Source: an uncultured virus (IMG/VR IMGVR_UViG_3300030508_000023)
Lineage: Duplodnaviria; Heunggongvirae; Uroviricota; Caudoviricetes
Virus record (IMG/VR): IMGVR_UViG_3300030508_000023
Strand: one strand, 5' to 3'
DNA length: 64,000 bases
In this document: in pieces, positions 4,188-55,946 of the stretch
Layout: each line of letters starts with the position of its first letter
Numbering within the stretch: the first letter of the stretch is position 1
Made by a program: the position numbers and the translations under genes
Notes under the pieces: generated by a model
Seen by the model: the letters and a program-made list of their open reading frames with translations, nothing else
The model's database searches: none
Told to the model about the DNA's origin: nothing

Positions 4188-4206
4188 TATTGTTCTCCTT
4201 TGTTAG

Positions 4207-4786
4207 TTGTTTACCGAAAATTATCCTGGTTTTAAAGATCCAGGAACTTTGATTATCCGACGTAGAGCAGTGGTGATTGCTCTCTACTTTGAACTGATGT
4301 CCGACTTCCACTCTGCAGTGGAAATAACGGAACCATCGTTCAGGATAACATAGTTCATATGTGTGTCTCCTTTTGTTTGTTGTTTACCGAAAATTGTCCT
4401 GGTTTTAAGAACTCCAGGAAACTAAATCTACTAATCCTCAGATACCAGATCACTAAGGATCTTCTTGATCTCATTGGGGGTTGCCGATTCCCAATCAAAT
4501 TGTGCAGAGCGCTGACGCAGATTATCTATCTTCTCCTTCAGGTCGATTTGAAGTTGCTTAGCTCCGTCTACCTCCTCTTGCTTGACTGGGTCGCTATAGG
4601 TAGCGACCTTTAGCGAGAAACTAGACACCAGCTCTGCTATCTCTTCGATCTTGTCGATAAGCTTCAGCCCATCGTCCCTGATCTCTTTTACTTTTTCGTT
4701 CATTTTGTTTGTGCCTCTTTACTGTTTGGCCTCAGGTTGTTTGTTTACCGAAAATTGTCCTGGTTTTAAAGACCCAGGAACTTTGA
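4207..4786. repeat. three copies of a ~44-bp intergenic repeat (4207-4250, 4380-4420, 4741-4786)
   Basis: TTGTTTACCGAAAATT(A/G)TCCTGGTTTTAA...CCAGGAA containing a TCCTGG/CCAGGA hairpin; each copy lies between a stop codon and the next gene's leader. Confidence 0.9.
4431..4703 (-). CDS. hypothetical coiled-coil protein
   Basis: 90-aa ORF between repeat copies. Confidence 0.7.
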   Translation of the reverse strand: MNEKVKEIRDDGLKLIDKIEEIAELVSSFSLKVATYSDPVKQEEVDGAKQLQIDLKEKIDNLRQRSAQFDWESATPNEIKKILSDLVSED

Positions 4787-19358: not shown

Positions 19359-19415
19359 GAGTTCGAGTCGCATATACCTTATATGATAAACCGACACAGA
19401 GTAAATTCAACAAAA

Positions 19416-19661
19416 TTAAAATATTTCCTCATCTGGGACTTCAATAACCCTTGGAGGATTTAACTCCTTTAGTTTAAATGGATAGAATGCAAGATCTGGA
19501 TCAACCATGGACAAGCAGTAGTTCCTGAACTCCTGGAGTAGCATGGCTACCTCCAGGACAAAGTGCAGCTTGTGCTTAGGATATACAAAGTTGTCCTGCA
19601 TACGAAAGTACACAGGACAGAACAAGAACCACCCTTCGTGATCAAACTCTACCTTCATCAT
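19416..19661 (-). CDS. small hypothetical protein
   Basis: 81-aa ORF overlapping the stop of the portal gene. Confidence 0.6.
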   Translation of the reverse strand: MMKVEFDHEGWFLFCPVYFRMQDNFVYPKHKLHFVLEVAMLLQEFRNYCLSMVDPDLAFYPFKLKELNPPRVIEVPDEEIF

Positions 19662-33960: not shown

Positions 33961-34214
33961 AGTGTTGAGTCCCTATTATTGCAGGACTCAACAGCTATGC
34001 CAAGTATCTTAGTCCAATTATTCTACACCCTAGCTGCCCTACTTACTTCAAATTTCTGAATCTTGCCAAACTGCCTATTGGCCTTTAGGGTGAATACCAG
34101 CTTATCTCCAGTATCCACAACAATACCCCTCTTAATGAGGGCTGTGTACTCTGGCTTGGTAAGTGGGCGCTCACCACTCTTTAGGATATTTCTGATTTTT
34201 TTAGATTTCATGGG

Positions 34215-34469
34215 TTATTCAACAGGTACTGGGGTGAAGTCTACATAGAAGGTATCCTCTGGATTGAACTTCCCAGCTGGTGCTGGATTAGTAACAGTCA
34301 TCTTCAAGGATACTGATGGAGAGTATGTGGCAAGTGTATTGTCCTCATCCGTCCCATCAGCTGGGTATGTCCCCTTCTTACAGACACCACAGAAGTTAAG
34401 TACCTCGTGGCCTCCAGCATATTTTTCAACAGAGGTGATTCGTAGTTTTGCTCTCATGTGTGCACTCAT
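34215..34469 (-). CDS. conserved small phage protein (MRAK...N.T.A.YSPS...NP...GKF...FYVDF)
   Basis: Recognised phage family motif. Confidence 0.7.
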   Translation of the reverse strand: MSAHMRAKLRITSVEKYAGGHEVLNFCGVCKKGTYPADGTDEDNTLATYSPSVSLKMTVTNPAPAGKFNPEDTFYVDFTPVPVE

Positions 34470-34479
34470 ATATTTATAA

Positions 34480-35106
34480 TTAAAATGTCCTAGTGAACCA
34501 GTACCCTACATCGTTGACAGAAGATCCAGCCTTTAGGATCAACCTACTGATCTTTTGTACCGACTTCCTGTATCCACCGAACGTAACCTTGTTCAAAATG
34601 TTTCTAGTTTTAGTCCAGGGATGATTCTCGTGGTCAGATATCATCTTTCTGAGCCTAGAGTGGCTCTCTTCTACCTCAGCCTTGGTAGAGTGGATCTCTG
34701 CCTTTAACAACTCTACGGATTTTAGCTCTCCGGTAACAAGTGTGGCACGAAACTCAATCCACCACTCATTGCCATCCTTATCTTTCTTAAGATCATAGAA
34801 GTCTACAGTAGCAGTTATGTGCTCTCTCATAGTCTCCCTGCTAGATTCTACAAAGTGTCTTGGCCAATAGAATCTATCCTTCTTTCTTCTCTCAGTCTGA
34901 ACCTCTGGAGAATCCTCAATGTATTCTCCGTGGACAACCTCAGTGTACAGATTTCCATCCTCTTCGATAGTGTACTTCGACATAGTGTTGTCGAAGTCCT
35001 TGGTCTGGAATTTTACTTCTTTCCAGTCTGTATCGGGAAAAGATGACCGGATCTCATCTGTGAGTGGTAAATCTTTCTTGAAGTAAAAATAGTCGAACAT
35101 TCCCAT
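34480..35106 (-). CDS. conserved phage protein (MGMFD...FQTKD family)
   Basis: Start reassigned to MGMFDY. Confidence 0.75.
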   Translation of the reverse strand: MGMFDYFYFKKDLPLTDEIRSSFPDTDWKEVKFQTKDFDNTMSKYTIEEDGNLYTEVVHGEYIEDSPEVQTERRKKDRFYWPRHFVESSRETMREHITATVDFYDLKKDKDGNEWWIEFRATLVTGELKSVELLKAEIHSTKAEVEESHSRLRKMISDHENHPWTKTRNILNKVTFGGYRKSVQKISRLILKAGSSVNDVGYWFTRTF

Positions 35107-35165
35107 AGTGTGCATTTGTTGAACAAGAGTATTAACACTGGTGTTTATACAGTGCAATAGGAAAG

Positions 35166-35240
35166 TGGAGCTTCCGGCAGGATTTTAACCCGCGACATCT
35201 GCCATACAAAGGGAGTGCTCTAACGCTGAGCTACGGAAGC
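35166..35240 (-). tRNA. atypical or degenerate tRNA-Thr(UGU)
   Basis: Perfect GCTTCCG/CGGAAGC acceptor and CCA, TT-TGT-AT loop. D-loop lacks GG, T-loop is TTAAAAT, and the anticodon stem has a C:C mismatch. Confidence 0.65.
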
Positions 35241-35241
35241 A

Positions 35242-35646
35242 TTAAACCCATGATGGATACTCTGTCCTAGTTGGACGAGGCTCCAGGCGATAGTCGATAA
35301 ACAACTCTTCACCCTCAGGGATATCTACACTAGCAACAACCAATCTATCTTGCAAGAGCCATAAACAGTTTGGATTCCTAGAGTGATTTATATATGAGAA
35401 CTTACTCCACCGATCACAGGTGACGCACCACTCATTATCAATCATCACATACCAACTCTTCCTAATCTGCTCTTCAGTAAGATCTGTGTATTTTAGTTTA
35501 TACCAACCATCTTGGAACAGATTGTAATCAATAATAGTCTCGCCAACAGCAAAGTTGCGACCTGCAAATAAGCCCCACCCCTCAATAGAGGACGGCTTAA
35601 CTACCGCATCTGGGGCATTGTCATCCTCTATGATAGGGGAGTCCAT
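35242..35646 (-). CDS. SET-domain protein lysine methyltransferase
   Basis: SSIEGWGLFA, YINHSRNPNC and DIPEGEELFIDY are SET motifs I, III and IV. Confidence 0.92.
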   Translation of the reverse strand: MDSPIIEDDNAPDAVVKPSSIEGWGLFAGRNFAVGETIIDYNLFQDGWYKLKYTDLTEEQIRKSWYVMIDNEWCVTCDRWSKFSYINHSRNPNCLWLLQDRLVVASVDIPEGEELFIDYRLEPRPTRTEYPSWV

Positions 35647-35651
35647 ATCTA

Positions 35652-35783
35652 TTATTGGCAACTCTCGCAGACCTCTCCACTACATCTCTCAGTAGCTTCT
35701 GGTCGCTCACCCAACTCAAAGTCAAACTCTGACTGGTCTTTACTTACTTCTTCTGTGGGTTCTTGGTTTGGTTCTGTACTCAT
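35652..35783 (-). CDS. 43-aa acidic peptide ending C-x4-CESCQ (not in ORF track)
   Basis: MSTEPNQEPTEEVSKDQSEFDFELGERPEATERCSGEVCESCQ; fills the gap upstream of the SET gene. Confidence 0.6.
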   Translation of the reverse strand: MSTEPNQEPTEEVSKDQSEFDFELGERPEATERCSGEVCESCQ

Positions 35784-35787
35784 AAAT

Positions 35788-36076
35788 TTGATCGTCTCTC
35801 CCGATAGTCACTAGTTCTTCTGTCTTGTCATGAATTCCAGCCGAAGGTCTAGTCATCGCTGTAAGTTCTTTAAAATCTCCCAACTCTATCCTAGGTATAG
35901 GAAAGCACCGCATACGCAATACGATTCGAGTTGAGACCTCCCCCAGGATCTCCCAGAAGAGGAATTGGTCCTATCCAGGGAGAACCCAAGATAGGAAAAC
36001 GGCTAGTGACCAATTCATCCGGTCACCGGAAACACACATGCGAGCAAGGAGATGATTCCGAACGCAAGTGCTACAT
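35788..36076 (-). ncRNA. putative structured non-coding RNA(s) downstream of the tRNA-like element
   Basis: No credible ORF; consecutive hairpins GGTGACC/GGTCACT, TCCTATC/GATAGGA followed by CCA, CCTCTTC/GGGGAGG, TCTCAACTC/GAGTTGGGA, and a terminal GTGACTATCGGGAGAGACGATCA. Confidence 0.5.
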
Positions 36077-36152
36077 TGGTGACAGGTAGGATAATCGAAA
36101 TCCTGACACGACAGTATGAGCGTCGTCGGAGCACCAGCCCCAGCCACCTGTG
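36077..36152 (-). tRNA. atypical tRNA with CAU anticodon (Met/Ile2-like)
   Basis: CACAGGT/ACCTGTC-A-CCA acceptor (C1:C72 mismatch), 6-bp D-stem with TGGT loop, CGACG-CTCATAC-TGTCG anticodon arm, AGGAT-TTCGATT-ATCCT T-arm. Confidence 0.7.
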
Positions 36153-36297
36153 ATAAAAGCTGCACTACTTATCGGGCGAGTGCACAACCACAGTTTTCAG
36201 AATGTAAAAGAGCGGCCCCCAGGTTTGAGCATTGTTAATAAGCTTTGGGGGCTCTGTTGCTACTACTTTCTTACATTTCCTAATGCTCGTCAACACT

Positions 36298-36338
36298 AAA
36301 AAGAAAAAGGACCCAACCTGGGGTATCAGGCTGGGCCC
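36298..36338 (-). terminator. intrinsic terminator after 36361..36621
   Basis: GGGCCCAGCCTG...CAGGTTGGGTCC followed by TTTTTCTTTTT. Confidence 0.7.
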
Positions 36339-36360
36339 AAATGATTTCTAACCTAAAGTA

Positions 36361-36621
36361 TTAGGCAAGAGCTGCAAGAGCAGCAGCGAGCTTGGTAGCG
36401 TCTGTAGCGTTAGCAGAGGCAACGATGAGGTTGATCTGAGCGACAGCAAGGGTACCGAGAGCTGTAGCGATGTCAGCAGCAGCAACAGCTGGGTTTGGGC
36501 CCTGAGCTGGTACACCATTAGCAAGGACACCACTAGCATTGGTAGCGATTCCACTAATTTGGTTTGCAAGGCTGGCGGCGGTGTTGGCTGCACGAGCAGC
36601 GGCGGTAATTGCGATTGGCAT
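36361..36621 (-). CDS. small Ala-rich protein
   Basis: 86 aa, strongly biased GCT/GCA codons, followed by a terminator. Confidence 0.7.
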   Translation of the reverse strand: MPIAITAAARAANTAASLANQISGIATNASGVLANGVPAQGPNPAVAAADIATALGTLAVAQINLIVASANATDATKLAAALAALA

Positions 36622-36808
36622 TGTTTTTTTTGACTCTTTGATCGGTAGTCTTCCGGGTTACTTTCTAAATTCTGAGTTCTTTGTAACTCCCAATTGATCA
36701 ATTGGGATAACTAAAGAGTTGTCAGGTTTAAATAAGATCTTCAACTAGTTTGAGAAAACAACCATATATTGTCAAGTGCTTTTGTGTATCGAGTAGATGG
36801 TTGGTTTA

Positions 36809-39800
36809 CTATGATATAAATTGTGCGGGAATCTTGTAGGTGCTGCCACCCACAACTATTTCGATGGTGCTGTCGCAGGTAATCGTTTCTGTGACTACTG
36901 AGTTGTTGCAATAGAGAGAGCCTCCAGAATCAAAACCGCCTTCACCGCCAGCGAACGAAGCACTTGGAGCTTGAAGGGCTAGGCCTGAGCCGTCATCGAC
37001 GGTGCTGCCAACAATAAAGTTTCCAGGGGTGTAGAGTCCTCCAGCGTAGGCTCTGCCAAAAAAGGTATCAGCCACATTGTTGTTGTTCGTCCACGATGAA
37101 AACGAGAAAATATAATCAGCAGGAACCCTGACCTGCTTGATGTCGTCGGTGATGTTTAAGGCTAAAGTGGAACCCGTATAGAAACTAAGGTTGTTTCCAT
37201 CGGTGGCAAATCCAACATTAGTGTTTTCGGTAAAAGAGTACCCAAGGCCACCATAGGACACGCTCCCGCTTTGAGCATAGACCGTGCCGTTTCCATCCAC
37301 TCCTGCCCCACCTGAAGCAAACCCAGCACTGCCGTCTGCATTTAGAGAGATCGCACCCACATTGACTCCAAGGCTCGCGAAGGTAGGGGAGTCGGTGGTA
37401 TTCAGCGACTGGTCGAATGGGTCACCACCACCAGTTGAATACCCCGCATCATTGTAGAAGCTGGATACATTCATTCCCACCATTGCCACGCTCTGAGAAC
37501 CATACTGCAACCCGCTGTCATCAAAGAGGGTGTTGGATGTTCCCGCAAACCCGAGACTAGGGACTACCGTGTTACCATACGGGTCAATGATTGCCTGCCC
37601 TGAGGAGAAGCTTGCTGATCCATCACTCCCGATAACCGATTGTCCTACTGCGAAAGAAGCCGAGCCATCAACATTTATAGTGGCTGCATAACCACTAAAC
37701 ACAGCCGACCCGTCCGCATTTAAGACCCAGTTCGAAGCAGGCCCAATCATATTGCAGGAAGGGTCTATATTAACCTTACTGCCGTAGTAGTTACCTATGT
37801 AGATATTGCCATCATCTGCAAGCTGCTGGCAAGCTAGGGAGCTGGCGTTGTAGTAATTGAATAACCCGAGAGAATCATCAAAAGATAATGATGCTCTGTG
37901 CGTACCGCTGACACTTACAGCGATCTCCCCGCCACTATTCATGGCCCAAACTTGGGGATGTCCTCCATTTGATGTAGAATGAACTTCAACATCAGTAAAA
38001 GAGGTGGTTCCACTTACAGTTAATCCACCAAATGAAGGGGAAGAGGTTGTATTCAGAAGTTGATTGAAATAATTATATTCAGTAGTGAGATAGCCAGAGT
38101 CATTTGTGAAGTGACTTAGCCCGATTCCCTGCATTGCAATAGTTGAAGTTCCGTACTTCAACCCACTAGAATCATGTAGCTCACTTCCTCCGTTTAAATA
38201 AACTCCTGCAAAGGTGGGAGAAGAGGTTGTTCCCACTGCCTGATTCATGGAGTAGAAATTAGTGGCGGAGAGGTGACCAAGCGCATCAATAGTAGCCCCG
38301 CCTCCAAAGGTAGAGATGCCTGTGACAGTTAGCCCTGCAAAGCTGGGAGAATCGGTCGTGTTGAGAGACTGGTCAAAAATGTTGTACTCGCTAGTGAGAT
38401 ACCCCATGTCATTAGCAAAGTTGGAAACATTAATCCCAACCATAGCTACACTCTGAAATCCGTATTGCAGACCACCATCGTCATAGAGGGTCGCTCCATC
38501 ACTCTCAGGGAAAGCTAGGCTAGATACCACAGTATTTCCTGATGAATCGATAGTTGCTCCGGTATTGCCAAAAGAGGCAGAGCCATCTAGGTTAAGCTGC
38601 GAGTAAGGGAGTATTAATGGAGAGTCAAGATATAGGTTTTGCGGCGTACCGGTTGAATCTCCTCCAGTAATACTTATGAGCCTTCCACCCTGCCAGTTCA
38701 GCTCGTAGCCTGGAACATCGTCAATGAGGTCCCGATAAGAGAACAAGCTAACGCCATTTTCGCCTGAATAATCGGTACCATTAAAAAAACTCCCTGTGCC
38801 AACATAAGAATACGGTGTAACATAGAGTGATGGGGCATAAATTATTCCAGTAAATTCGGCAGAAACTTCTCCGGAAATAGAACTAGAATAGTGGGTGCCT
38901 AGTATTACCCCAGAATCTACATAGACAGGGACATGGAAAAGTGCCTCACCCCCACCACTAACAACATAAAATTGAATAGCGTTGCTACCAAATGAAGCGT
39001 TCCCAGAGCTGCCTAGAGTAGTAGCTCCATCAGCAAAAGAGGCAGAACCATCATTATTTAAAACTGTGTTATAGCTAGTACCATTCCAACCAATACCAGC
39101 GTCATGGGCATAAAGATGGCTAGTCGCGGTAACAGTCCCAGTGCTAAAACTAGGTACACTAATACCAGAGAACGTACCAAGACCTGCAGCAGATATGGTA
39201 GCAGTCCCAGCAGCAAAGGAGGCAGATCCATCAGATGCATGGATTACTGCCTTTGTCGGACCTGTTCCTACAGATAGATTTCCATAGGAAAAGAGAGATA
39301 CAGCCGAAACGTTACCACTGCTATCAACCTCAGTCCCAGATCCCGTACCTAATCTTCCTCCTAGATAAGTAATCCCCTCAAAGTAAGAAGTGCCAGTCTG
39401 ATCTAGAGTTCCTGACATTGACAGTCCTCCAGTTATAACGGCACCATTTCCTATAGCTGCACCGGAGGCAGAAGCTATATATGCTGTGGTTATTTGCGCA
39501 GAATGGAGGATCCCATTATTGGATATAGTAGCAGCACCATTGGCAAAAGAGGCAGATCCATCAGCATTGAGGTGTGTAAACCCACCCGTAGTCCCAAGAG
39601 TAAGGTTTCCATAAGCATCAATAATAAACTCTCCGACAGTCAGTCCAGCGAAAGTCGGTGAACTTCCTGTATTGAGAAGTTGATTGAAATAGTTATATTC
39701 AGTAGTGAGATAGCCAGCGTCATTAGAAAAATAACTAACTCCAATACCCTGCATGGCTACCGTGCTTGAACCATACTTTAGTCCACTGGAATCATGAAGT

Positions 39801-40180
39801 TCACTTCCTCCACTTAAATAAACTCCCGCAAATGTAGGGGAATTGGTTGTATTGAGAAGTTGATTGAAATAGTTATATTCAGTAGTGAGATAACCAGAGT
39901 CATTAGAAAAATGACTAACTCCAATACCCTGCATGGCTACGACTTGCGATCCATAGTGGAGTCCGCTCGAGTCGTGGAGTGTATCGCTACCACCGCCTGT
40001 AAGTCCTACGCTTGGAAGAACTATGTTCCCATAGGAATCAACAACAAGCCCTCCAACAGTCAGTCCACCGAAGGTAGGGGAACTGGTCGTACTTAAGGGT
40101 TGATTGGGGGGAGTATATGTAAACTCCTTGTATGAACCATCAGACTGAAGCTCCTGTACTGTAAAATCACCTGTTGCCAT
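36809..40180 (-). CDS. large repeat-rich fibre/appendage protein
   Basis: Start MATGDF (TAATG overlap); repeated L(H/Y)D(S/D)SGLxYGS..VAM.G..VS.F.ND.GYLTTEYN.F.Q.LNTT.SP.F modules. Confidence 0.8.
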   Translation of the reverse strand: MATGDFTVQELQSDGSYKEFTYTPPNQPLSTTSSPTFGGLTVGGLVVDSYGNIVLPSVGLTGGGSDTLHDSSGLHYGSQVVAMQGIGVSHFSNDSGYLTTEYNYFNQLLNTTNSPTFAGVYLSGGSELHDSSGLKYGSSTVAMQGIGVSYFSNDAGYLTTEYNYFNQLLNTGSSPTFAGLTVGEFIIDAYGNLTLGTTGGFTHLNADGSASFANGAATISNNGILHSAQITTAYIASASGAAIGNGAVITGGLSMSGTLDQTGTSYFEGITYLGGRLGTGSGTEVDSSGNVSAVSLFSYGNLSVGTGPTKAVIHASDGSASFAAGTATISAAGLGTFSGISVPSFSTGTVTATSHLYAHDAGIGWNGTSYNTVLNNDGSASFADGATTLGSSGNASFGSNAIQFYVVSGGGEALFHVPVYVDSGVILGTHYSSSISGEVSAEFTGIIYAPSLYVTPYSYVGTGSFFNGTDYSGENGVSLFSYRDLIDDVPGYELNWQGGRLISITGGDSTGTPQNLYLDSPLILPYSQLNLDGSASFGNTGATIDSSGNTVVSSLAFPESDGATLYDDGGLQYGFQSVAMVGINVSNFANDMGYLTSEYNIFDQSLNTTDSPSFAGLTVTGISTFGGGATIDALGHLSATNFYSMNQAVGTTSSPTFAGVYLNGGSELHDSSGLKYGTSTIAMQGIGLSHFTNDSGYLTTEYNYFNQLLNTTSSPSFGGLTVSGTTSFTDVEVHSTSNGGHPQVWAMNSGGEIAVSVSGTHRASLSFDDSLGLFNYYNASSLACQQLADDGNIYIGNYYGSKVNIDPSCNMIGPASNWVLNADGSAVFSGYAATINVDGSASFAVGQSVIGSDGSASFSSGQAIIDPYGNTVVPSLGFAGTSNTLFDDSGLQYGSQSVAMVGMNVSSFYNDAGYSTGGGDPFDQSLNTTDSPTFASLGVNVGAISLNADGSAGFASGGAGVDGNGTVYAQSGSVSYGGLGYSFTENTNVGFATDGNNLSFYTGSTLALNITDDIKQVRVPADYIFSFSSWTNNNNVADTFFGRAYAGGLYTPGNFIVGSTVDDGSGLALQAPSASFAGGEGGFDSGGSLYCNNSVVTETITCDSTIEIVVGGSTYKIPAQFIS

Positions 40181-40473
40181 TACCAAGATCCTAGGATAGT
40201 CCTCTTCCACACGTTGGTACCAACGCATATGTAGAGATAGTTGTTTGTATAAGAGAGGGCACCTGGAAGTCCGGTAGAGTTAGTAGCGCTGGGAGGGGTT
40301 ACCCATCCAAGCGCATTGAATCCAGATAATGCATTGGACCTGAGGTAGTTGAGCGTGTTGGTACTGAAGTTAGTTGTATTTACCGAAGAGTTAGCACCAA
40401 GATTATACTTTGGGGCAGTCTGGGGAAAAGCAGTTCCAACTAAAAATAGGAATAGCGCTAGTGTTGTTCTCAT
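40180..40473 (-). CDS. small protein with a signal-peptide-like N-terminus and a fibre-type C-terminal motif
   Basis: MRTTLALFLFLVGTAFP; ends G..GALSYTNNYLYICVGTNVWKRTILGSW. Confidence 0.65.
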   Translation of the reverse strand: MRTTLALFLFLVGTAFPQTAPKYNLGANSSVNTTNFSTNTLNYLRSNALSGFNALGWVTPPSATNSTGLPGALSYTNNYLYICVGTNVWKRTILGSW

Positions 40474-40484
40474 TCGTGTTCTCT

Positions 40485-40513
40485 ATAATATGAGTAAGGT
40501 TAAGGTAAGTCAA
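40485..40513 (-). promoter_or_regulatory. sigma70-like promoter for the fibre genes
   Basis: TTGACT-N17-TATTAT on the minus strand. Confidence 0.55.
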
Positions 40514-40527
40514 GATACCTGGTAGCT

Positions 40528-40585
40528 AAAAAAAGCCAACCTGAGCGAGGAACTCCCTAAAGGGAGTTCCCCGACAGGGGCTTTT
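40528..40585 (-). terminator. long-hairpin terminator ending the right accessory block
   Basis: GGAACTCCCT-TT-AGGGAGTTCC core inside AAAAGCC...GGCTTTT, followed by a T run. Confidence 0.65.
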
Positions 40586-40590
40586 GATCT

Positions 40591-41692
40591 CTACTGAGAA
40601 GGGGATTGAAGCTCGAGCATAATCTCGCGCTCCCTCTCTGCTTTCCTAAGCTTCTGGTTAGTTTTCCTCAGGGCATTGTTCTCGACCCTCAGCACAGCCA
40701 TCTTGCCAAGCATCCTTGTGAAGTTCTCCCTGGCGAGTTTGCTTCTGTGATCTTCCCGAGACAATGCAAGCCTGAGAGCCTCTTTGTAGCCCTCTAGCCT
40801 TTCATCTACGGAGATAGCTTTGCAATCTAGTGCATGATATCCCCAGTAGTGACATGCTGCACACCTGGAACCAGGTGGCCTCACTGCCTCAGGCTTTGTC
40901 TGTAAACTTTCGTTCTTTGCTTCCATGAGTTCTTTGTAGGTGTGATTGCTGTGGCAGTCATTGCCCTGAAGCCAAACCAATCGTTGGTAATAGTTCATCC
41001 AGGACTTGCATCCACACTTGTGTTGAGTCCTAGTGCCTATCGGTTTCTGTACTTGTGTCTCCATTGGGTTTGGGTGTTTTTACTTTAGCTAGTGCATAGG
41101 AACAGACCCTCTGAATACTTCCCGCTGGGGCAGGATTCATGAGGGAGAGTTCATACACTCTTTCCAAAGCAGCGATGGCGTCAGGAACCCTATCAAGGTT
41201 GAGATCACTCATCTTTATTTCTTTCAGCAAGTAGTCTTCGTCGTACTCATTGCATGAAGGCTTAATGGGCACACTTGGCTTTATGTCCTCGAGAAACCAA
41301 TGCGCTGAGGTACATCCGTGGACACGCTTCCCAACAACCTTGTTGTGTTTGTTTACGGAGAATTTGCAACCGCATTCCCTGCATATCCCAGCCGTAGGTG
41401 GTGGATAGATACTTTTTTGCATATGCTATTCCTTCTTAGAGTCAACCAGCAGGATTGAGACAACCTCAAAGCTGTAGATCTTCATCTGAGCTCCTTCCTT
41501 GTCCAATCTCTCCATTGTCGTCTTAATGGCGTTACACACTCTTTCGCTATCGACCTGCTCGCCAGGCTTGTAGTCGATAATAAAGAGTTCCCTTTTTGCA
41601 GCATACTCAATACCTAGTCCTGCATTCTTGAGCATGCCACTGAGTAGACGGTTGCCCGTCATTACCTCTACTTTTGCTTGGTAGTGTTTCAT
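40591..41692 (-). CDS. three small genes (40591..41064 with CAAC...H...C knuckle, 41030..41422 with CxxCxC, 41426..41692)
   Basis: Contiguous ORFs with Cys/His motifs. Confidence 0.6.
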
Positions 41693-41707
41693 TGTTCCTC
41701 CTTTGTT

Positions 41708-42193
41708 TTAGTTGTTATTTGTAAACATATTTTCATTTCTTTCATATATTCTATCTATCATTTGGATATCAAACCTAGTGAGGTCTCTGTACTGACTTGG
41801 AAAAATTTGCAACTCTCTAGTCCTTGGAAACACTGATAGTATATAACAATCTTCACCGTGTGGATTATAAGATACCATAGTAATATTCTCATTAATTATG
41901 GCTGCTAATCTGGTCATTACTTTGTGTGGGGTTCCACCACTGGTAATAAACCCATACATATTTCGATTGGCAGAACACTGACTATCAATAGGGAGAGATT
42001 CACACCCCCATGCGTTAAAGCATACCTCTCGTATATGTTCGATATTATCTGCGGTAAATGATATTGGCTTTATTCTACTAAAATCAAGACCACCTTGTAT
42101 TCCAAACAAGCCATGTGGCACCGTAAGGTAAAAATCAAGAGGGCGGTGCGTAATATCTATAATCTGTAAGGTATTGATATATGGATTATTCAT
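41708..42193 (-). CDS. YubB/DUF1281-like family paralog (dispersed copy)
   Basis: INTL...LDFSRIKP...WGCES...FITSGGTPHKVMTRLAAI. Confidence 0.7.
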   Translation of the reverse strand: MNNPYINTLQIIDITHRPLDFYLTVPHGLFGIQGGLDFSRIKPISFTADNIEHIREVCFNAWGCESLPIDSQCSANRNMYGFITSGGTPHKVMTRLAAIINENITMVSYNPHGEDCYILSVFPRTRELQIFPSQYRDLTRFDIQMIDRIYERNENMFTNNN

Positions 42194-42806
42194 TCTTGTT
42201 GAGTTCGTCCGCAAATCGCTTGGCTTCTTTTATATCAATGCAATGAGCAAATAGAGTCTTCTCGTTTTTGTAAACTATGTCCTCGTTTAATCCCTTATAC
42301 CCAGCCGTATAAACATCCCTCTTCCCCTGCTGGCTATTGAGGAATTCTGCGATTGCTGTGCAGAAGATGGAGCGAACCACCTCTCGTTCATCCGCTATGG
42401 TTAAGATGAGGTTTCCGTTGCTGTCTGTAATCTGCCCCTCGCCACATGATATGAATGGGTCTGTGTATTCTGATAGTGCGGTTTGCAGGGGTGTTTTTTC
42501 TAGGTTCATAAATTACTTTCCTTGGTTGAGGGCTTCGAGTTTGGCTTTTGCGCTCCTCCACTTGGTATAATTCTCATCTGCTGGATGAGCGGGGCTTGGG
42601 ATAATCGGCATTGCCTCTACCAACTCCTCCGCAACCTTCCGGTATGCCTCGGCGCGTTCGTTCGCGGCGGCGAGTTCGGCAATAGCTCTATTGAGTCGCT
42701 TCATAGCTTCTCCTTCGTAGATAAACTTATTTTCAAGATTATCGAAGATGCTTATATCATCTCCATCTTCTTCCATTAAATACCTCGGCGTTTTTGTATC
42801 ACTCAT
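42186..42806 (-). CDS. two small hypothetical genes (42186..42509 and 42513..42806)
   Basis: Contiguous ORFs. Confidence 0.6.
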
Positions 42807-42818
42807 GGTCTTTGGTGG

Positions 42819-43154
42819 TTAGTTGGTTAAATCAATTATTATAGTTCCAAACCTATCTTCCGGTTGATGTGTGTGAGGTACTGAAACGCCGCATTTGGGA
42901 CAATTAGGTGACGCGACATCTTCTGGCCTTCGGTTCCATGCGTTTGCTGCAAGGATTCCTGCGGTGGTAGCTATCTGGCACTCAGATATAGGGAGTCGAT
43001 ATTTTACCCACGAAAAACTTCCCCCTCTAGCTCCGCACTTACCACACGCAACATACGCATTATTATCACCGTCATAAAGATATGGAATTGACCCGCAAAA
43101 CGGACAGCTTCTTAGGTCCGGCCTCAATAGTTTTTTGGCTATTTCGTAGCTCAT
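42819..43154 (-). CDS. lar: Lar-family restriction alleviation protein
   Basis: LRSCPFCGS...YVACGKCGARG...AANAWNRR. Confidence 0.8.
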   Translation of the reverse strand: MSYEIAKKLLRPDLRSCPFCGSIPYLYDGDNNAYVACGKCGARGGSFSWVKYRLPISECQIATTAGILAANAWNRRPEDVASPNCPKCGVSVPHTHQPEDRFGTIIIDLTN

Positions 43155-43158
43155 AATC

Positions 43159-43512
43159 TTACTTGGTTAGTTGGTTGTATTCTGCGCGGATTTGGTGAAA
43201 CGGCCTCAGCGGAGGGTGATTGTAGGCATCTAACAACTCATCCAGAAGCCCCCGCAGCTTTGCGTTCTCGGCCTCTAGCCCCATAATCCGTTCGTTGCAA
43301 AGCTCCGGCTGATGGTAGTCGCGTTTTATTTCCGCCACCTCCGCCTCCGCCTTCTGCGCTCGCTCAAGGGCGCGGCAGAGATCGGATTGCTCATCATAAG
43401 CATCTGACCAATATCCACACCCATATCGGATTGCTCCGTTAGGTGCTGGCAGGGCGTTGCGCTTTGCTGACCCGCAAAACGGGCATTTCTCCGGCGTGAT
43501 TTCGGTTTTCAT
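43159..43512 (-). CDS. CPFCG zinc-finger plus coiled-coil protein
   Basis: KCPFCGS...YGCG...C followed by a coiled coil. Confidence 0.65.
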   Translation of the reverse strand: MKTEITPEKCPFCGSAKRNALPAPNGAIRYGCGYWSDAYDEQSDLCRALERAQKAEAEVAEIKRDYHQPELCNERIMGLEAENAKLRGLLDELLDAYNHPPLRPFHQIRAEYNQLTK

Positions 43513-43564
43513 AATTGTTGTTGGTTTTCAGTGTGAGTTCAAGAAATAGGCGGCGCGTTCCCGC

Positions 43565-43795
43565 CTACTGTGTGTTGGACTGCTTTTCTAATTCGTCCCA
43601 CGGATGAAATGAGTCGAAATTAGGACAGGCTATTGAGTAGAGCTGATGGATCGCCTCCATGATGTCGGATTCAAAAAGGGCATCACGGGCTGCTATTATT
43701 TTCCTTGCCACATCTGGCTGGATGTCACGAGGCGCAGTCCAACCACTCACTGGAGCGAACACCTCTTGCTCGCTGGTTTGGTTATTTGTTTCCAT
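43565..43795 (-). CDS. cassette A gene (hypothetical)
   Basis: ATG lies inside attC-like site 43737-43829; ORF ends S-N-T-Q-stop across the GTTGGAC core at 43574. Confidence 0.7.
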   Translation of the reverse strand: METNNQTSEQEVFAPVSGWTAPRDIQPDVARKIIAARDALFESDIMEAIHQLYSIACPNFDSFHPWDELEKQSNTQ

Positions 43796-43829
43796 ATTTT
43801 TCGGTGTCGCTCAGTTCGGGGTGTTCGGC
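43737..43829 (+). mobile_element. integron attC-like recombination site
   Basis: R'' GTCCAAC, 5-nt spacer, L'' ACTGGAGC (extra G), GA-A-CACC stem with extra A, loop, GGTGTC, L' GCTCAGT, 7-nt spacer, R' GTTCGGC. Confidence 0.8.
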
Positions 43830-44023
43830 GAATAGCCTAGTTGCGGTATGTAGGGTTCCCAATGTCCCGTTTTACAGTGATAGGTCACTCCATCATCTCC
43901 AAGCCCCAGCATGACTCCTTGCCAAGTGCTGTCGTTTGGGGCTATTAGTATTTGGACGATTTTCGCCGAACCAGTTGATGCAGGCAACGCCTCTTGCGGG
44001 GTGGATTCGTTTTCTTCTTTCAT
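43811..44023 (-). CDS. cassette B gene (hypothetical, MKEENES...)
   Basis: AAGGA RBS and ATG lie inside attC-like site 43965-44088; stop lies inside site 43737-43829. Confidence 0.7.
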   Translation of the reverse strand: MKEENESTPQEALPASTGSAKIVQILIAPNDSTWQGVMLGLGDDGVTYHCKTGHWEPYIPQLGYSPNTPN

Positions 44024-44088
44024 ATTAGTTTCCTTTTTATTGTTGTGATGATCCGCTCTCACGGCGTACCTGATCACCAGTGTTAGAC
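43965..44088 (+). mobile_element. integron attC-like recombination site
   Basis: R'' GCCGAAC, 5-nt spacer, L'' GATGCAGG (extra G), CA-A-CGCC, loop, GGCGTA, L' CCTGATC, 6-nt spacer, R' GTTAGAC (canonical GTTRRRY). Confidence 0.85.
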
Positions 44089-44348
44089 CAACGGGTAATC
44101 CACACGACGCTTCCAAGCGGCCACCAAAGTGTCCAGTAGCGTGCCGTTCCATTTGCTCCTCCTCCCATACAAGTAAATGGCCATCTCATTCCCAGCCACG
44201 CAATGTCCACTGTTAGCCTACCAACATGGACTCTCATCAACCGATGGCCGTAAAAGCACACATTTAGATAGGGAAGTCCGTAAGTTCTGCGGTCACTCTC
44301 CGCTGAATGTGGATTTAGTATTTCGTCTATTGTGGTTTTTCCATTCAT
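44037..44348 (-). CDS. hypothetical gene ending inside attC-like site 43965-44088 (cassette C remnant)
   Basis: Reads W-S-N through the R' AAC and stops in the loop. Confidence 0.6.
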   Translation of the reverse strand: MNGKTTIDEILNPHSAESDRRTYGLPYLNVCFYGHRLMRVHVGRLTVDIAWLGMRWPFTCMGGGANGTARYWTLWWPLGSVVWITRWSNTGDQVRRESGSSQQ

Positions 44349-44439
44349 ATTTTTGTTTTGTTTCCTATGTTAATTCAAATTTAGTAGTCTGATTAATACC
44401 TATCTATTTACTAAATAACAACAATAATTAGTTTGTTAT

Positions 44440-44949
44440 TTAGTCTGTATCTTGTGATACTAAATCCATGTTTGCATCACACGACTCACCGATTGCATCA
44501 CGCACTTCACGTCGTAAATGACTATATGTAATACGACTCAACTTCATAGATCTTGTTTGTGGTTTTACCTCGAGCAGGTAAGTCTCATTAGCTCTGTACC
44601 TAAACGACACTAGGGATAGTTTTGTATTGGTTATAGCAGCCAACCTAGTCACTACTCTATGTGGAAATCCTTCTCTGGTAATGAATGTATGAATCTTTCC
44701 GTGTACATTCCACGCTCCCCGAGTAGACACATATCTGCACCCCCACTGTTCCATTCTGGCTTCATACTCTTGATGCACTATGGCGAATGGGTTTACCACA
44801 GTTCGCTTGATGGCATGAAAATCCAAATCATCTCTAGGACCCCTAAGATAAGTGGGCGACAATATATCCCGCAAGTTCGCAAAATCAATATAAAACCCAA
44901 AGGACATCAGTGCATTTACATAAACAGCATTAATATTGGGGTTATTCAT
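44440..44949 (-). CDS. YubB/DUF1281-like family paralog (dispersed copy)
   Basis: YVNAL...LDFHAIK...QWGC...FITREGFPHRVVTRLAAI. Confidence 0.7.
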   Translation of the reverse strand: MNNPNINAVYVNALMSFGFYIDFANLRDILSPTYLRGPRDDLDFHAIKRTVVNPFAIVHQEYEARMEQWGCRYVSTRGAWNVHGKIHTFITREGFPHRVVTRLAAITNTKLSLVSFRYRANETYLLEVKPQTRSMKLSRITYSHLRREVRDAIGESCDANMDLVSQDTD

Positions 44950-47300
44950 TTTCAATGTGGACATCAAAGCTCTCGACATTGGCTCGCATCTCATCTGTAT
45001 TAGACTCGAACTCTGCGACCTTCTTCTTCATAGCTTCAATGATTGCTCTTTTGGAACATTTGTTAATTTGTCTGCTGCACCCGACGACCTCAAAGGCCAT
45101 CAGGCAAGCATGGTTGTATTTAGTCTTCATGTTGATTCTGGTTCGTTCCTTCTCTAGCCCCCTTGAACACCATTGCGTGTGCGTAGCAGTCATTCAGGGC
45201 AGAGGCAACGAACCGTCCATATTCTTCCTTTTCATCCCTTCCACCCACACCGGACTCAACAGAACAAACGTGGTATCCTTTCGAGTCCAGTATCGCCCCT
45301 TCCTCACTGGCATAGTATGAGAATGGTGGAGTATACTCCAATAACTTCTCTCCTACTGTTCTAAAGTTGTCCATGTTGTTCTGTTGGTTGAATGTCATGC
45401 ATTTCTGACGTGGTATGCACATTCTTGCGTACTCCAACGAGTAATCCAAGAAGTAGGCCAACCAGCAATGCGACAAAATATATTATCGGATAACGCCTTG
45501 TTATAGGCTGCTCTTGCTCTTGCTCTTGCTCTTGCTCTTGCTCTTGCTCTTGCTCTTGTGGTTTACAAGAGTTATCAATCATTTCTACCACTTCCACAAA
45601 CAATGAACGCTGGGGCAGAAACTTCTCAGAGTCTGGGACCTTAGAGTCTACTCTGATAGAATCCCCTTCTTCGCGGTGGAACACCATTGTTCCTGCAATG
45701 GCCTCAAACCCACCCTCTTTGTTGTTTGACATCCATTCATTGCTGATAGCGTCCAAATCTGCGCTTTTGTTCCAGGGATTCTCCATTGTAGAGTTGTTCC
45801 TGTTATTGTTATACCTTGCTATTAAGGCCTTTAGTGTAGGGCCAAGAATTTCTGCTGGTGACATATGTCATTCCTCCTTTGTTGTTATCCCAAGGATTGC
45901 CTCCAACTCAGCTTCGACATCCTCTCCAACATTGTTAGTTAGGAGATCAGTTGCTTCATCTGGTGTAGCATCCCTTAGGGCTTTTATGAACTCGTAGGCA
46001 TTCCTCAATACTACATCCTTTCCGCTTAACTTATTCTCAATCTCTGCATCAGTAGGTATATCCAACGCTTCTCGAATCCCCTGTGCTGTTAGTGGGCAAC
46101 CCAGTTCTTCTATGACCTCAATAGAATCCTGCAGCAATTTTCTGAGCTTTTGCAATTCCTCAACCGCTTTCTCTACGCAATCCTCAATTGAAGGGACTCC
46201 ATAGGAATCGCCCTCAATAAACTCTTTCCCTAGGATTGGCTCCAGTAGAGCTTTTACCTTGGTGTCTGTCTCTGCCCAATCTACATGAGCAGTGAACTCA
46301 TTGCCCTTTGCTATGGCAAGCTCTTCTTCCGCTTTGTTCTTTGCCTCAAGTGCCCTTTTAAAATCAAAATCTCTAAGCTCTAACTCTGACCTCAGTGTGA
46401 AATTGGCTTCGCGTGTCTCGCACAGCTCATGACGCTCATAAGTATCTTTCTTATCCTCTTCTGTGGGTTCACACCCCGGCCAGTACTCTATACCAACTGA
46501 ATCTTCTTCCCACAGTTGCGTTCCGCACTCCCACAGATGTGGATTAACAGGCTTAGCCCCGCAGAATTTGCAGTTACTCATCGGGCTCTCCATTCTCGTC
46601 AAGGAACCCTAGGGCTATACCCTCCTTGACCCAAGATTCCTTTCTCTGTTCGTACCTCTTGCGGGCCAAATAGGCCGCTTTAAGTTGTTCTCTTGTTATT
46701 TCCATGATTGTTGTTGGTTAGTTGTGAATACCTCGCGCTGCTATAAAAGCAGCAGCTAGGGTGTCTTGCTTGGTTAGTAGCATTGAGCACTTTTCAGCTG
46801 GTGGCATCTGCCTTGCATTGAGACATCTCAACTCACGTTGGACAGCCTTGTTGTAGCGTTCTGCCTTTGCAGCTGGTGTGTTGTGTGGGGAAAGAATGTT
46901 CTTAAGGATCTTCTTGCCCCTCTTTATCGCGAGTCGCTTTTCAGCCTCACGTTGTCGTCGTGACTTGCTCATCTTAGCGGCCTAGTAGATGTAGCACAAA
47001 CGCTACAGCATCTTTCCAGAAATTAGTGAACCTATCCACTATCATCTCTTCTGGGAGTATCTCTATGGGCTCAAAGTATTGAGCCTCTATCCCGCAATGT
47101 TCTCCATCCCATTTGCGCTGAAGTTCACAGAAAACAGTTCTAGGGAGCCCCATACTCTTTCGCTCTCCCACTATAGGATCAGGGTCTGCAAACCGCTCTT
47201 CACCCAAAGCCTTGGGGTTTGTGCACTTTGATAGGTCTGGGTTTTCATAATTAATCTTAGCCCACTTGCAGTCTTTGCAGAGTCTTATTGGTTCTTTCAT
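44942..47300 (-). CDS. run of small hypothetical genes (44942.., 45120.., 45361.., 45868.., 46718.., 46974..47300)
   Basis: Overlapping minus-strand ORFs; the last (MKEPIRLCKDCKW...C...C...CG) starts at the ATG abutting the IS left end. Confidence 0.55.
45511..45558. repeat. (CTCTTG)8 hexamer microsatellite encoding a QE repeat
   Basis: Perfect tandem repeat, in frame in ORF 45361..45864. Confidence 0.95.
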
Positions 47301-52622: not shown

Positions 52623-54308
52623 TTACTCTTTGTGCTTTTTGATCATTGCACTAACGATCACTAATATAGTGCCTATTACCCAAATGATAGACATGAACGC
52701 AATAAAGAAAATAGTCTGCGTAGGGAGGATAATCAGCTTCCCCAACAGAGTGTATTCGCGCCATTGTTCCTTGAGTATTTCAATAAAATCGATACCTACC
52801 TCAACAGTATCTCTATAGATTTTGTTAAATACCTCTTTCATTTAGTTGTTTTTTGTTTTGTTGTTTCCAAACTCGTACGTACATTTGGTAAACCCCCTCT
52901 CCATAAACAGGATATCTCTTCACTGCTCTATGGAGAGAGGGATATTGACTTACCCAATGGTTAAACATATCCCTCACTTGGTGGACTGTTGTTAGTAAGC
53001 ATCTTTCACCAATGCAGCCACTTCTTTGACGCTTACGGTTTTGTCTTTTAGTAGAATCGGAGTAGCTACCGACTCCATAAGATTCTTTTTGAACTCAGCT
53101 GCTGCCTCGTCAGTTGCTTCGCACAAGACCCCTACACAAAATTGAAGAAGCTTGTCGCTTACATCAGGAGGCAACACCATGCTGATAGATGTGGTCTTAT
53201 TATCAAATATCACTGTTGACTTGAACTTGCCTTTGTTGTCGCCCCAGAGCTCGCGCTTGACCTCTAGGGAATTTAGCAAAACCATCTTTGGATCATCCGG
53301 TGACATTTTTTCCTTTTTCTGTAGTTGGGACTGTCTCCCACACTGGGTCTCCTGAATAGAACCTTCCATTGGCCCTATATAGCTTTTTGTAATACGCTAT
53401 TTCCTGGCTGACGTTGCAGTCAGGACAATATCGATGGAAACAACTCACCCTGTTCTGCCCAGATATAATTCCTGGAGAATCCCCAGGTGCATACATCCAG
53501 CTGTGCTTATGCTTGAACAATCCCTTGCCATACCGCATAACTGCCGTCAAAAGACGAATGCATGCAAAGAGCAGGAATATTGAGCATATCACGCATGCCA
53601 CCATAAATGGATATATCATGCCTGGTTGCATCGTTGCTAGTATCATGGCAATAGCGTTTTGTTTTTCTCAGCCTCTCTCTTGCTCTTGAAGCGTTCGATG
53701 ATACTGTTCCCAAGCTCAAGTCCAAATGCCACTAGATGTCCTAGCACTGCCAGTAACGCCCCAAAAACTATAACTCCAACTACTATCATAAGTAATCCTA
53801 ACATATTTTTGTTTTCCTTTTTTGTTGTTTGTTTTTATTTAATCCCGATACCGACTTTTACTACCCCCCTCAAGGTGTGCAATAAATAAGATGATAGCTA
53901 CTACCAATAAGACGAATCCAGCTACACCACCCACAACCTGAGGTGATACCCCACCAGCCAATGCAGCAAGTCCTGAACAGACAAAACACAAAATAGACCC
54001 AAGGACTAATTTGTTTTGTTTGAGGTATTGAATTATATTGTTAGTTATTTCTTTCACGATTGTTTTTATTTTTGATATTAGCTCCAGTATTATTGTCGTT
54101 AATCATCAGAGTGTTTAATCATGTGCACTACAAACAACACAAAGGCTGCAATCAGTAGAAGCAACCCAGTTGTGGCACCGACAATCTGGTATGGGGGATC
54201 ACAACGCACCAATGTACTAATGTTTGCTAATACTAAACACACAAAACACCAAACTGCTTGGGGGTATTCTGCGGTTAGTTGTTTTATCTTACTAAATAGT
54301 TCTTTCAC
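52623..54308 (-). CDS. small genes, mostly membrane proteins (52623..52841, 52992..~53306, 53293..53646, ~53630..53805, 53839..54057, 54099..54308)
   Basis: Hydrophobic ORFs; 53839 and 54099 are paralogous two-TM proteins with matching GTGAAAGAA starts and leaders. Confidence 0.6.
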
Positions 54309-54673
54309 GATTGTTTTTGTTTTGATTCTGCCTCACACAGCTCACACGGTATCCCAGATTTGCTCCAGGAGTGTTTGCTGCAAGTGAAGTAGACTCCTTG
54401 TTGGAATTTTGATGACTCTGGCTTGTCTGGATAGATGAACCCTAACTCAGACAGGCCATACTCGATCATGTTAAGCGCCACATTCTTATTCTTAAGCTGC
54501 GACCTCTCTGACCAGCATGAGGCCATAAGGCCAGTTGGGATATGAGTAATAGTAACAGCAAGAGGGTGAGGCATCCCACAGGTCTGCCCACCAATGCGCT
54601 CTTCGCTTCTCACCACCTTAAGCTCCCCATGCTTGTGGGACTCGATCTTTAGATCTGAAGGATCAATGTTCAT
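54305..54673 (-). CDS. stand-alone class-1 release factor catalytic (GGQ) domain with a C-terminal Cys/His tail
   Basis: IDPSDLKIES...GGQ...AVTITHIPTGLMASCWSERSQLKNKNVAL matches RF1/RF2 domain 3; tail CSKH...CELC. Confidence 0.85.
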   Translation of the reverse strand: MNIDPSDLKIESHKHGELKVVRSEERIGGQTCGMPHPLAVTITHIPTGLMASCWSERSQLKNKNVALNMIEYGLSELGFIYPDKPESSKFQQGVYFTCSKHSWSKSGIPCELCEAESKQKQS

Positions 54674-55946
54674 ACCTAGACTTGAGTGTTTTGAGCAGAG
54701 ACAACTCTCTCTTCCTCTTTGCCTCTGCTCTCTTCTGGGCAGATACCTGACCAGCGTGCTTCGCTCGAGCCTCACTGTCGAGCCTATCCTTATACTCTTT
54801 GTCTGTCTCAATAGACTCGTATCGGACCTCATAGACCATATAACGATCTTCGTAATGGCTTTCCTCATAGTAATGAGTAAAAGTTACGGTTTCCTGCTCT
54901 TCTTCCGTAAGATGTCCTATGGCATCCCTGATCCTATTTTGGATACGCTCAGCAGTACCATCGAAAAAGTCGTCACCTTGGTCAGGCAACCGCCTGGTTA
55001 TGTATTTCTTTTTACCTCCCATTGTAGTCATTTACCTCCAGTTTGATTTCATTTTCAGTAGCCTTCTTGAGGACTTTCTGTTTCATCGGTCCGCCTCTGT
55101 CCCAATCTTTGTTGTCGTTTTTGCCAAAGTATCTGGCATAGCCATTGTTCTCTTCCATCCAAAGCTTTAGATAGTGAAGCTCACTCTCTGCGTCTCCATT
55201 TGGAATAAACTTTTCAGTGACATAAGCAGCCTTGTAGGCAAACTCCACCATGTAGTCGGGTACTTTGGGGTAGTATCTATACCTGACAACATTCTTGCTG
55301 CCATAGTTCCTATAGAGCTCTCTGACGTAAAACCACTTATTCCTAAAAAAAGGAGGGAAGTTCTCTTTGTCAAATTGCTCCTGACTTATACTCACGAGGC
55401 CTTGACCATCCTGAATATAAGTAAAAAAGCTATCTCTCCCGCTGCCAAATCCGACCTCCGTACGAGCTTTGTAGCTCTTAGGAGAATGCTTTTTACCTAA
55501 TACCCAGTGATCACATGCATCAACCACTTTCTGGACTTGCTCCCCAATGGAACTTCTCAGAACGTCATCCCTAACTTTGAAGTGACGCCAGTGACCTACA
55601 AAAATCTTGTTTTCAAGAGGTACGCTAATTCCTCTCATATCTCGATATAGCTCATTAATGCGCTCCGCGACTTTCCGAATATGCTTCAAAGAAATTTCCT
55701 TCTTCTGCTTCTTCATCTCTTTGTGTTGGTGTTGTTGCTAGCCGCCGCTTTGCGTTCAGCCTGCATCTTGTTAAAATCTCTCCTGGCAGCATTGAGTTCA
55801 TGCCTCTGGACAGACTCAGTGCGAATGCGATCAAACGTCTCGACTGGATACCATACATCAGCTCCATCTTTCCCGTATCGCTTCCAAAAGCGCTTCTTGC
55901 CATCTGGGGACAGATCCCCTCTCTTGTATCGTTTCTTTTCTTCCAT
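54663..55946 (-). CDS. three hypothetical genes (54663..55031, 55012..55716, 55713..55946)
   Basis: Overlapping minus-strand ORFs. Confidence 0.65.

Follow-up and report, generated by a model that had tools for sequence, protein, structure and literature searches.

Positions 43547-44348 of the DNA analysed here, a stretch of 64,000 nt from an uncultured virus (hereafter the window), probably hold a cluster of attC sites lacking an integrase (CALIN), built by IntI-type recombination and carrying inverted genes that cross the sites in frame. Two complete sites and one truncated site in this jumbo-type phage would delimit two cassettes of ~250 bp. Site-specific recombination at G/TT between sites folded from single strands, the mechanism of IntI tyrosine recombinases, would have assembled the array. 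The genes lie on the attC bottom strand, in the same direction as phage transcription. In each ORF the R'-box AAC is an Asn codon; the frame then crosses the recombination point and stops a few codons further on, in the neighbouring site, whose variable loop supplies the start codon of the next gene. The data show the anatomy of the sites, their support by a covariance model, the swapped R boxes, the strand and frame of the genes and the recurrence of the layout in other phages. We infer the enzyme, its present-day activity and the benefit, the shuffling of small accessory genes; a host IntI is the probable enzyme because no recombinase is encoded in the DNA available.

The window belongs to a large, jumbo-type phage that is known from metagenomes only. 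All of its genes in the window lie on the minus strand, and they include pieces of a split multisubunit RNA polymerase (PF00562, PF00623, PF04561). An IMG/VR fragment (G001) comes from the same phage, is 100% identical to window 34001-42670 and ends at 42670. Downstream of the block formed by genes A, B and C (Table 1) lie a gene for a 117-aa protein and a Lar-like gene at 42819-43154 (PF14354 at 29.6 bits, cut-off 28.6). Genes A, B and C matched no family in Pfam or PHROG, a megablast search with the block as query matched none of 50,697 phage records, and Rfam gave just weak matches to unrelated families over the block region. The AlphaFold models of gene C (pLDDT 50.6) and gene B (69.8) were both too poor for fold searches. 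GC content over 43150-44350 was mildly raised, which is not decisive.

Table 1. Positions in the window of the attC-like sites, the predicted cassettes, their inverted repeats and the genes of the block.
Feature	Position	Strand	Description
Truncated site 0	43547-43580	+	7-bp hairpin TAGGCGG/CCGCCTA (43547-43567), 6-nt spacer, R' GTTGGAC (43574-43580)
attC-like site 1	43737-43829	top strand +	matched by strict template and model R3
attC-like site 2	43965-44088	top strand +	matched by strict template and model R3
Predicted cassette A	43575-43823	+	249 nt; edges G/TT at 43574/5 and 43823/4
Predicted cassette B	43824-44082	+	259 nt; edges G/TT at 43823/4 and 44082/3
Inverted repeat 1	43574-43583 / 43734-43743		GTTGGACTGC / GCAGTCCAAC; 10 nt, 100% complementary
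Inverted repeat 2	43823-43832 / 43962-43971		GTTCGGCGAA / TTCGCCGAAC; 10 nt, 100% complementary
Gene A	43565-43795	minus	76 aa
Gene B	43811-44023	minus	70 aa
Gene C	44037-44348	minus	103 aa; first gene of the block

A sigma-70 scan found no excess of promoter-like sites and nothing within the gap at 44349-44439, upstream of gene C. This gap is AT-rich, and perfect 12-nt inverted repeats occur at it (44410-21/44433-44 and 44310-21/44457-68); the gap may serve the block as an operator or promoter. Elsewhere on the minus strand, the window encodes a SET-domain protein (35242-35661; PF00856, 4.4e-14), a 167-aa protein with a (QE)n run (45361-45864) and, at 54305-54868, a protein whose match to the RF-1 domain fell just under the cut-off (34.2 vs 35 bits). 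A motif of ~55 nt, ttcctgga.ttcttaaaaccagga.aattttcggtaaacaac.aacaaaaggaga, occurs in two copies (4190-4260 and 4375-4440, minus) flanking a tiny ORF, and looks like a phage promoter/RBS module.

The initial annotation had described two sites with attC anatomy and a third, truncated one. Both complete sites were recovered by a strict template, and the truncated site has its 7-bp hairpin, 6-nt spacer and GTTGGAC box. Site 1 reads, in order, R'' GTCCAAC, CACTC, L'' ACTG-G-AGCGA, a 48-nt loop, L' TCGCTCAGT, TCGGGGT and R' GTTCGGC. Site 2 reads R'' GCCGAAC, CAGTT, L'' GAT-G-CAGG, an 84-nt loop, L' CCTGATC, ACCAGT and R' GTTAGAC. The loops carry the gene starts, as had been proposed: the ATG of gene A lies within the loop of site 1, and the loop of site 2 contains the stop of gene C together with the RBS AAAGGAAA and the ATG of gene B. 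The final 15 codons and the stop of gene C fall within site 2. The two sites share a strand and are separated by 136 nt. Both have an L stem with an extrahelical base on the '' arm, with spacers of 5+7 (site 1) and 5+6 (site 2), and the alignment to covariance model R3 shows the same L-stem register as the template. The extra base is a G on the top strand in the window sites; in canonical attC sites it is a C on the top strand and a G on the bottom. Of the five boxes, three conform to the consensus RYYYAAC/GTTRRRY, namely R'' GTCCAAC, R' GTTAGAC and the site-0 R' GTTGGAC; the other two, GCCGAAC and GTTCGGC, deviate from it at position 4.

The truncated site lacks an R'' box, and recognisable attI features were not found there. 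Its hairpin folds at -6.9/-7.2 kcal/mol (z -1.2/-1.6). On the gene strand the hairpin resembles a terminator, because it begins with the TAG stop of gene A and is followed by TTTCTT; a terminator scan flagged it on the + strand only.

The strict template began with a 7-nt box whose last three bases were AAC, followed by a 5-nt spacer and an 8-nt arm containing a single bulge; after a loop of at most 130 nt came a 7-nt arm, a spacer of 6-7 nt and GTTNNNN, and at least 5 of the 7 R positions had to pair. Searched over both window strands (128 kb of strand), it gave four sites, including sites 1 and 2; the other two, at 19385-19478(-) and 4241-4359(-), are unrelated and look fortuitous. Dinucleotide-preserving shuffles (n = 200) contained a mean of 0.41 and a maximum of 3 template sites, none reached four, and none had two sites at most 400 nt apart on one strand.

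Covariance models were then scored against the window and against control DNA. Model R1 described the compact 53-58-nt sites of contigs L028 and L010, and R2 was a phage-only model of seven sites. The home-made model R3 was built from 22 sites, none of them from the window: 10 from phages and 12 from an Opitutales genome (G010), the latter being biased towards this site type because a phage-derived model had picked them. Run unfiltered over the whole window, R3 ranked site 2 first (43965-44088(-), 27.4 bits, E 7.9e-5) and site 1 second (43737-43829(-), 14.6 bits, E 0.19), in support of the annotated sites and with their coordinates unchanged. Nine matches in the 64 kb had E-values up to 10, and the remaining seven all had E of at least 1.4, these values being based on a shortened calibration. 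The window matches lay on the minus strand, which corresponds to the attC bottom strand. R3 also matched the bottom strand of both attC sites at the TJE1 locus (attC1 and attC2, 28.0 and 23.0 bits) and of six attCs of a phage-borne integron of Vibrio anguillarum (15.4-21.9 bits).

The narrower model R2 left the window sites undetected (best 5.3 bits). R1, run on G001 and three further records (G002-G004), had no match in G001, an outcome of little weight given that neither R1 nor R2 detects the window sites. Both models ranked TJE1 attC1 first in 180 kb of control phage DNA. In an alignment of 13 sites the L-box helix was 95.7% paired, with six of nine pairs changing on both sides, and the observed covariation was reached in 0 of 500 shuffles. 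GAAC/GTTC was invariant in this alignment, and the three outer R positions were mostly unpaired locally.

A pattern scan of 185,579 species genomes returned two loci, L056 and L057. The model did not confirm L057. L056 led to G010, the one true bacterial carrier, where the integron-integrase model TIGR02249 exceeded its cut-off in four matches, one of which contains an in-frame stop. In the 20-kb stretches beside three of its intI genes, R2 found 16 matches on the array side and none on the other side. All 16 were on the strand opposite the cassette ORFs, so that what the phage-derived model captures is the bottom strand of attC. The same genome contains ~30 copies of a 318-aa open frame with a partial integron-integrase match (about 111-113 bits + 67 bits), which suggests a tyrosine-recombinase element present in many copies across this genome.

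The boxes of the window are exchanged between neighbouring sites. In each complete site, R'' is the exact complement of R' of the preceding site and not of its own, and it is because of this arrangement that IntI-type assembly appears probable. Cassette A starts TTGGACTGC, and the exact complement GCAGTCCAA(C) lies in its own attC; cassette B starts TTCGGCGAA, which is exactly complementary to the R'' arm of the same cassette, TTCGCCGAA(C). The 10-nt complementarity between R'' and the cassette start was thus as originally described, exact in both cases, and one position needed correction: the first arm begins at 43734, and 43737 is the start of the 7-nt box. A third exact 10-mer in the window lies at the end of gene A.

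The same footprint was found beyond the window. Across the arrays of the window, L028, L010 and L011, 7 of 10 consecutive site pairs had exactly complementary 7-mers, and the variable positions were complementary in 32 of 40 cases between consecutive sites, compared with 29 of 56 within sites. When the same boxes were re-paired at random, the sum was reached in 2 of 20,000 draws. The V. anguillarum integron (L042), used as a positive control, showed an R'' that was the exact complement of the previous R' in most consecutive attCs. The swapped-box footprint of IntI recombination claimed for the window thus recurs in other phage arrays and in a true integron. Counts of exact 7-mer partners within 900 nt (9 of 27 boxes on the expected side, 5 of 28 on the wrong side) are weak by themselves; within 250 nt, eight partners lay on the expected side and none on the wrong side.

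Folding of the sites depended on the form considered. In array form, sites 1 and 2 folded as single-stranded DNA no better than shuffled sequences (z -0.45 to +0.31), with energies of ~-10 kcal/mol for the site of cassette A (z about -0.3) and ~-11 for that of cassette B (z about 0). No pairing forms in their loops (48 and 84 nt), which sets them apart from typical attCs; for comparison, TJE1 attC2 folds at z -7.7. When the ends of each cassette were joined in silico, the attC fold reached -17.4/-18.1 kcal/mol for cassette A (z -3.9/-4.2) and -19.8/-22.6 kcal/mol for cassette B (z -3.4/-4.5), and was the minimum-energy structure of these circle-form sites. This is in line with the proposal that the cassettes would rebuild paired attCs on circularisation.

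The coding arrangement is inverted and crosses the sites in a fixed frame. Genes A-C are on the minus strand, antisense to the attCs, as the initial annotation had noted. Within 13 loci comprising gene B homologs and related loci, all 17 R3 matches were on the gene strand, as were both matches in the window; the phage genes therefore lie on the attC bottom strand. Genes A, B and C all read the core AAC as an Asn codon (QSN-TQ-stop in A, SPN-TPN-stop in B, WSN-TGDQ... in C), and the tail and stop come from the adjacent site, again in line with the original description. This in-frame coding recurs elsewhere. The frame that reads AAC as a codon was open for at least 25 codons upstream at 18 of 21 phage sites, compared with 6 of 19 bona fide attCs, for which the count was near those of the other two frames (4 and 3). 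Two of the three exceptions among the phage sites have a stop directly before AAC in the same frame. Tails after the Asn at phage sites are 1-23 residues long. At TJE1 (L041), the minus strand upstream of attC2, which is the attC bottom strand, contains a 124-codon open frame with AAC in frame, opposite the annotated orf3; this may reflect chance or a strand mis-annotation.

Protein families related to genes A, B and C have their boundaries at the same residue. In family A (5 of 5 members), a conserved core runs from 'GWTAP' in arm 1 to an invariant Asn74 in arm 2, and the leaders before 'GWTAP' and the tails after 'QSN' are unrelated between members. In P0005, one of the homologs from families A and C, a W-to-C change in arm 1 is accompanied by an S-to-R change in arm 2, which would be compatible with compensation. 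In family B, 8 of the 11 aligned lineages have a conserved Asn at the end of the core, 'KI[IV]QILIAPND..WQG..GLGDDG.TY..WEP'. An Asn occupies the boundary column in 13 of 18 members of family C, again followed by unrelated tails. That three unrelated families end their conserved cores at an AAC-encoded Asn suggests that genes and sites have long been co-adapted, as opposed to stray capture.

Homologs of gene B were found in 7 viral and 26 metagenomic loci, on phage and metagenome contigs only. No relatives of gene B turned up when 185,579 species genomes of bacteria and archaea were scanned by pattern, and the scan gave no sign of exchange with bacterial integrons. Neighbourhoods of the homologs differ among lineages; in L010 and L028, for example, they lie downstream of a DNA polymerase gene. 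A relaxed template scan found junction sites of the same type on the gene strand in several of these contigs, and L028 has an array of sites in which each AAC box is complementary to the preceding GTT box. The stem that brackets the start of B across an 82-93-nt loop covaries among the window (GATCAGG/CCTG(C)ATC), L028 (GAACAGG/CCTG(C)TTC) and L025 (GGATCAC/GTG(C)ATCC). Junction cores are conserved between phages (GAACGC..AG...GTTG...CG...GTTC), and L028 and L051, two contigs with no other sequence in common, have one 49-nt site core at 100% identity.

Two further features of the related loci were noted. Many loops in the compact sites of L028, L010 and L056 contain GCGAAGC or CCGAAGG, and an unpaired T before the 3' arm is conserved; these sequences correspond to the GAA mini-hairpin, known to be unusually stable as single-stranded DNA. 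In L007, L008 and L009 (3900-4170), the B homolog has no in-frame ATG, GTG or TTG start, and it is overlapped, in a different frame, by a 24-codon ORF lying upstream (MNKIKSKSKP...). This could reflect a frameshift, an atypical start codon or decay of the copy.

No tyrosine recombinase (PF00589) was detected among the 62 largest ORFs of the window, consistent with the original report of no integrase there, nor in G001 or in G002-G009, records that are partial except for G005, which has terminal repeats. The phage was also recovered from two other samples (L015 and L016; 99.8% identity, collinear), which are identical across the block, and therefore no gain or loss of cassettes was seen. L015 is 99.8% identical to window 42483-45523. 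From window 42483 downwards (L015 3042-3210), the two diverge sharply in the N-terminal part of the gene at 42186-42509, a diverged allele.

Alternative readings of the block were weighed against these data. The structures might act in mRNA only, as hairpins enclosing start codons (translational coupling) or as RNase III-type processing sites, with a convergent likeness to attC; the 10-nt repeats would then be long-range RNA helices closing each cistron, and the ribosome finishing the upstream gene would open the hairpins. Several observations accord with this. The folded strand is the gene strand, with one L-box pair occurring as G.U at 7 of 13 sites and as A-U at the remaining 6; the RBS and start codons are in loops, with upstream stops within the 5' arm or ahead of it; as single-stranded DNA, the window sites form only weak hairpins; and a recombinase was found neither in the window ORFs nor in G001-G009. 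An RNA function does not, however, predict the invariant AAC/GTT with attC spacing, or R boxes that pair with those of a neighbour. Models trained on such sites find arrays adjacent to integron integrases, and the TJE1 attCs, in a single orientation, and a 49-nt site core is shared intact by two otherwise unrelated contigs. We therefore regard an exclusively RNA-level role as unlikely; RNA and DNA roles could coexist.

PeSL modules of T4-type phages carry promoter and terminator direct repeats, and their shuffling has been proposed to be driven by homology. Similar homologous recombination between junction hairpins, giving modular shuffling that needs no integrase, would fit the missing integrase and the conservation of junction-core sequence between phages, including the core common to L028 and L051. 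The direct repeats that should flank each ORF in such modules were nevertheless not seen: the longest within 43400-44500 measure ~13-20 nt at most, are 75-92% identical and do not bracket the genes. Homology would also leave unexplained the complementary boxes around each gene and the match to bona fide attCs, and we judge it improbable as the origin of the array. Chance resemblance, selected by scanning many windows, would account for the two fortuitous-looking template matches elsewhere in the window, and inverted repeats of 10 nt at most 200 nt apart are not rare, at an estimated ~12 per 64 kb. Against this, the adjacent pair arose in none of the 200 shuffles, the independent model R3 placed exactly sites 1 and 2 on top, and the layout recurs in other phage contigs, so that coincidence seems very improbable indeed.

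Integrons are regarded as bacterial devices, and their cassettes as self-contained genes read from the top strand. An integrase-less array of the kind proposed for 43547-44348 would place an attC site type in integrase-free phages, with the coding strand inverted, the crossing fixed in frame and the starts set in the variable loop. If the sites are active, such phages would shuffle their own small genes by means of host integron integrases, which would extend integron biology and explain in part the mosaic accessory regions of phages. The window sites provide a concrete, testable set of substrates. It is also conceivable, and we offer this tentatively, that uncultured lytic and jumbo phages share a pool of their own, made of bottom-strand, one-frame mini-cassettes of ~250 bp that host integrases join during infection. 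The standard frame of this pool would read AAC as Asn, take its stop from the next site and put the following start codon in the loop. Cassettes could then be combined in any order and still be translated, and small accessory proteins, possibly with anti-defence roles, would be shuffled combinatorially, apart from the bacterial pool.

The array can be placed beside systems already described. The block has small accessory ORFs in a plastic phage region, with structured junctions on either side thought to promote shuffling, much as in PeSL modules; unlike these, it has junctions built like attC sites, with complementary boxes exchanged between neighbours and no long direct repeat in common. Sedentary chromosomal integrons, including the V. 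anguillarum phage-borne array (L042, MK672802) and the arrays of G010, share with the window the AAC/GTT boxes and the bulged L box, and in L042 also an R'' complementary to the previous R'. Sites within the genome of a sedentary integron are alike, a trait in common with the window type. In contrast to sedentary integrons, the window has no intI, attI or Pc, its cassettes measure just ~250 bp and its coding strand is inverted, genes of the window type being on the bottom strand and those of L042 and G010 on the top. The combination that makes a complete integron (intI, an adjacent attI and a Pc promoter) was accordingly not present; what was found is the arrangement of a CALIN, with two attC-like sites in the same orientation at most a few kb apart and no integron integrase detected close by.

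Bottom-strand, frame-standardised cassettes were not described in the texts accessible to a full-text literature search. Clusters of attC in virulent phages were published in 2023, and that paper (Qi et al. 2023, PMC9892861) lists 17 CALINs in phages and reports that IntI1 recombined 5 of the 6 phage attCs tested, a panel to which the TJE1 sites correspond. On this account, phage-borne attC clusters are already known. The window resembles these phage CALINs (PMC9892861) in having co-oriented attC sites between small ORFs without intI, and the R3 scores of its sites are in the same range as those of the two TJE1 sites. TJE1 genes, however, lie on the attC top strand, whereas those of the window and the related contigs lie on the bottom strand; the window also differs from these CALINs in that its ORFs run through the recombination point in one fixed frame, in that start codons lie in the loops, and in that its phage is of the jumbo type and known from metagenomes alone. 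Judged from its sequence, the block is a real integron-type cassette array, of which the inverted, frame-standardised coding would be the new part.
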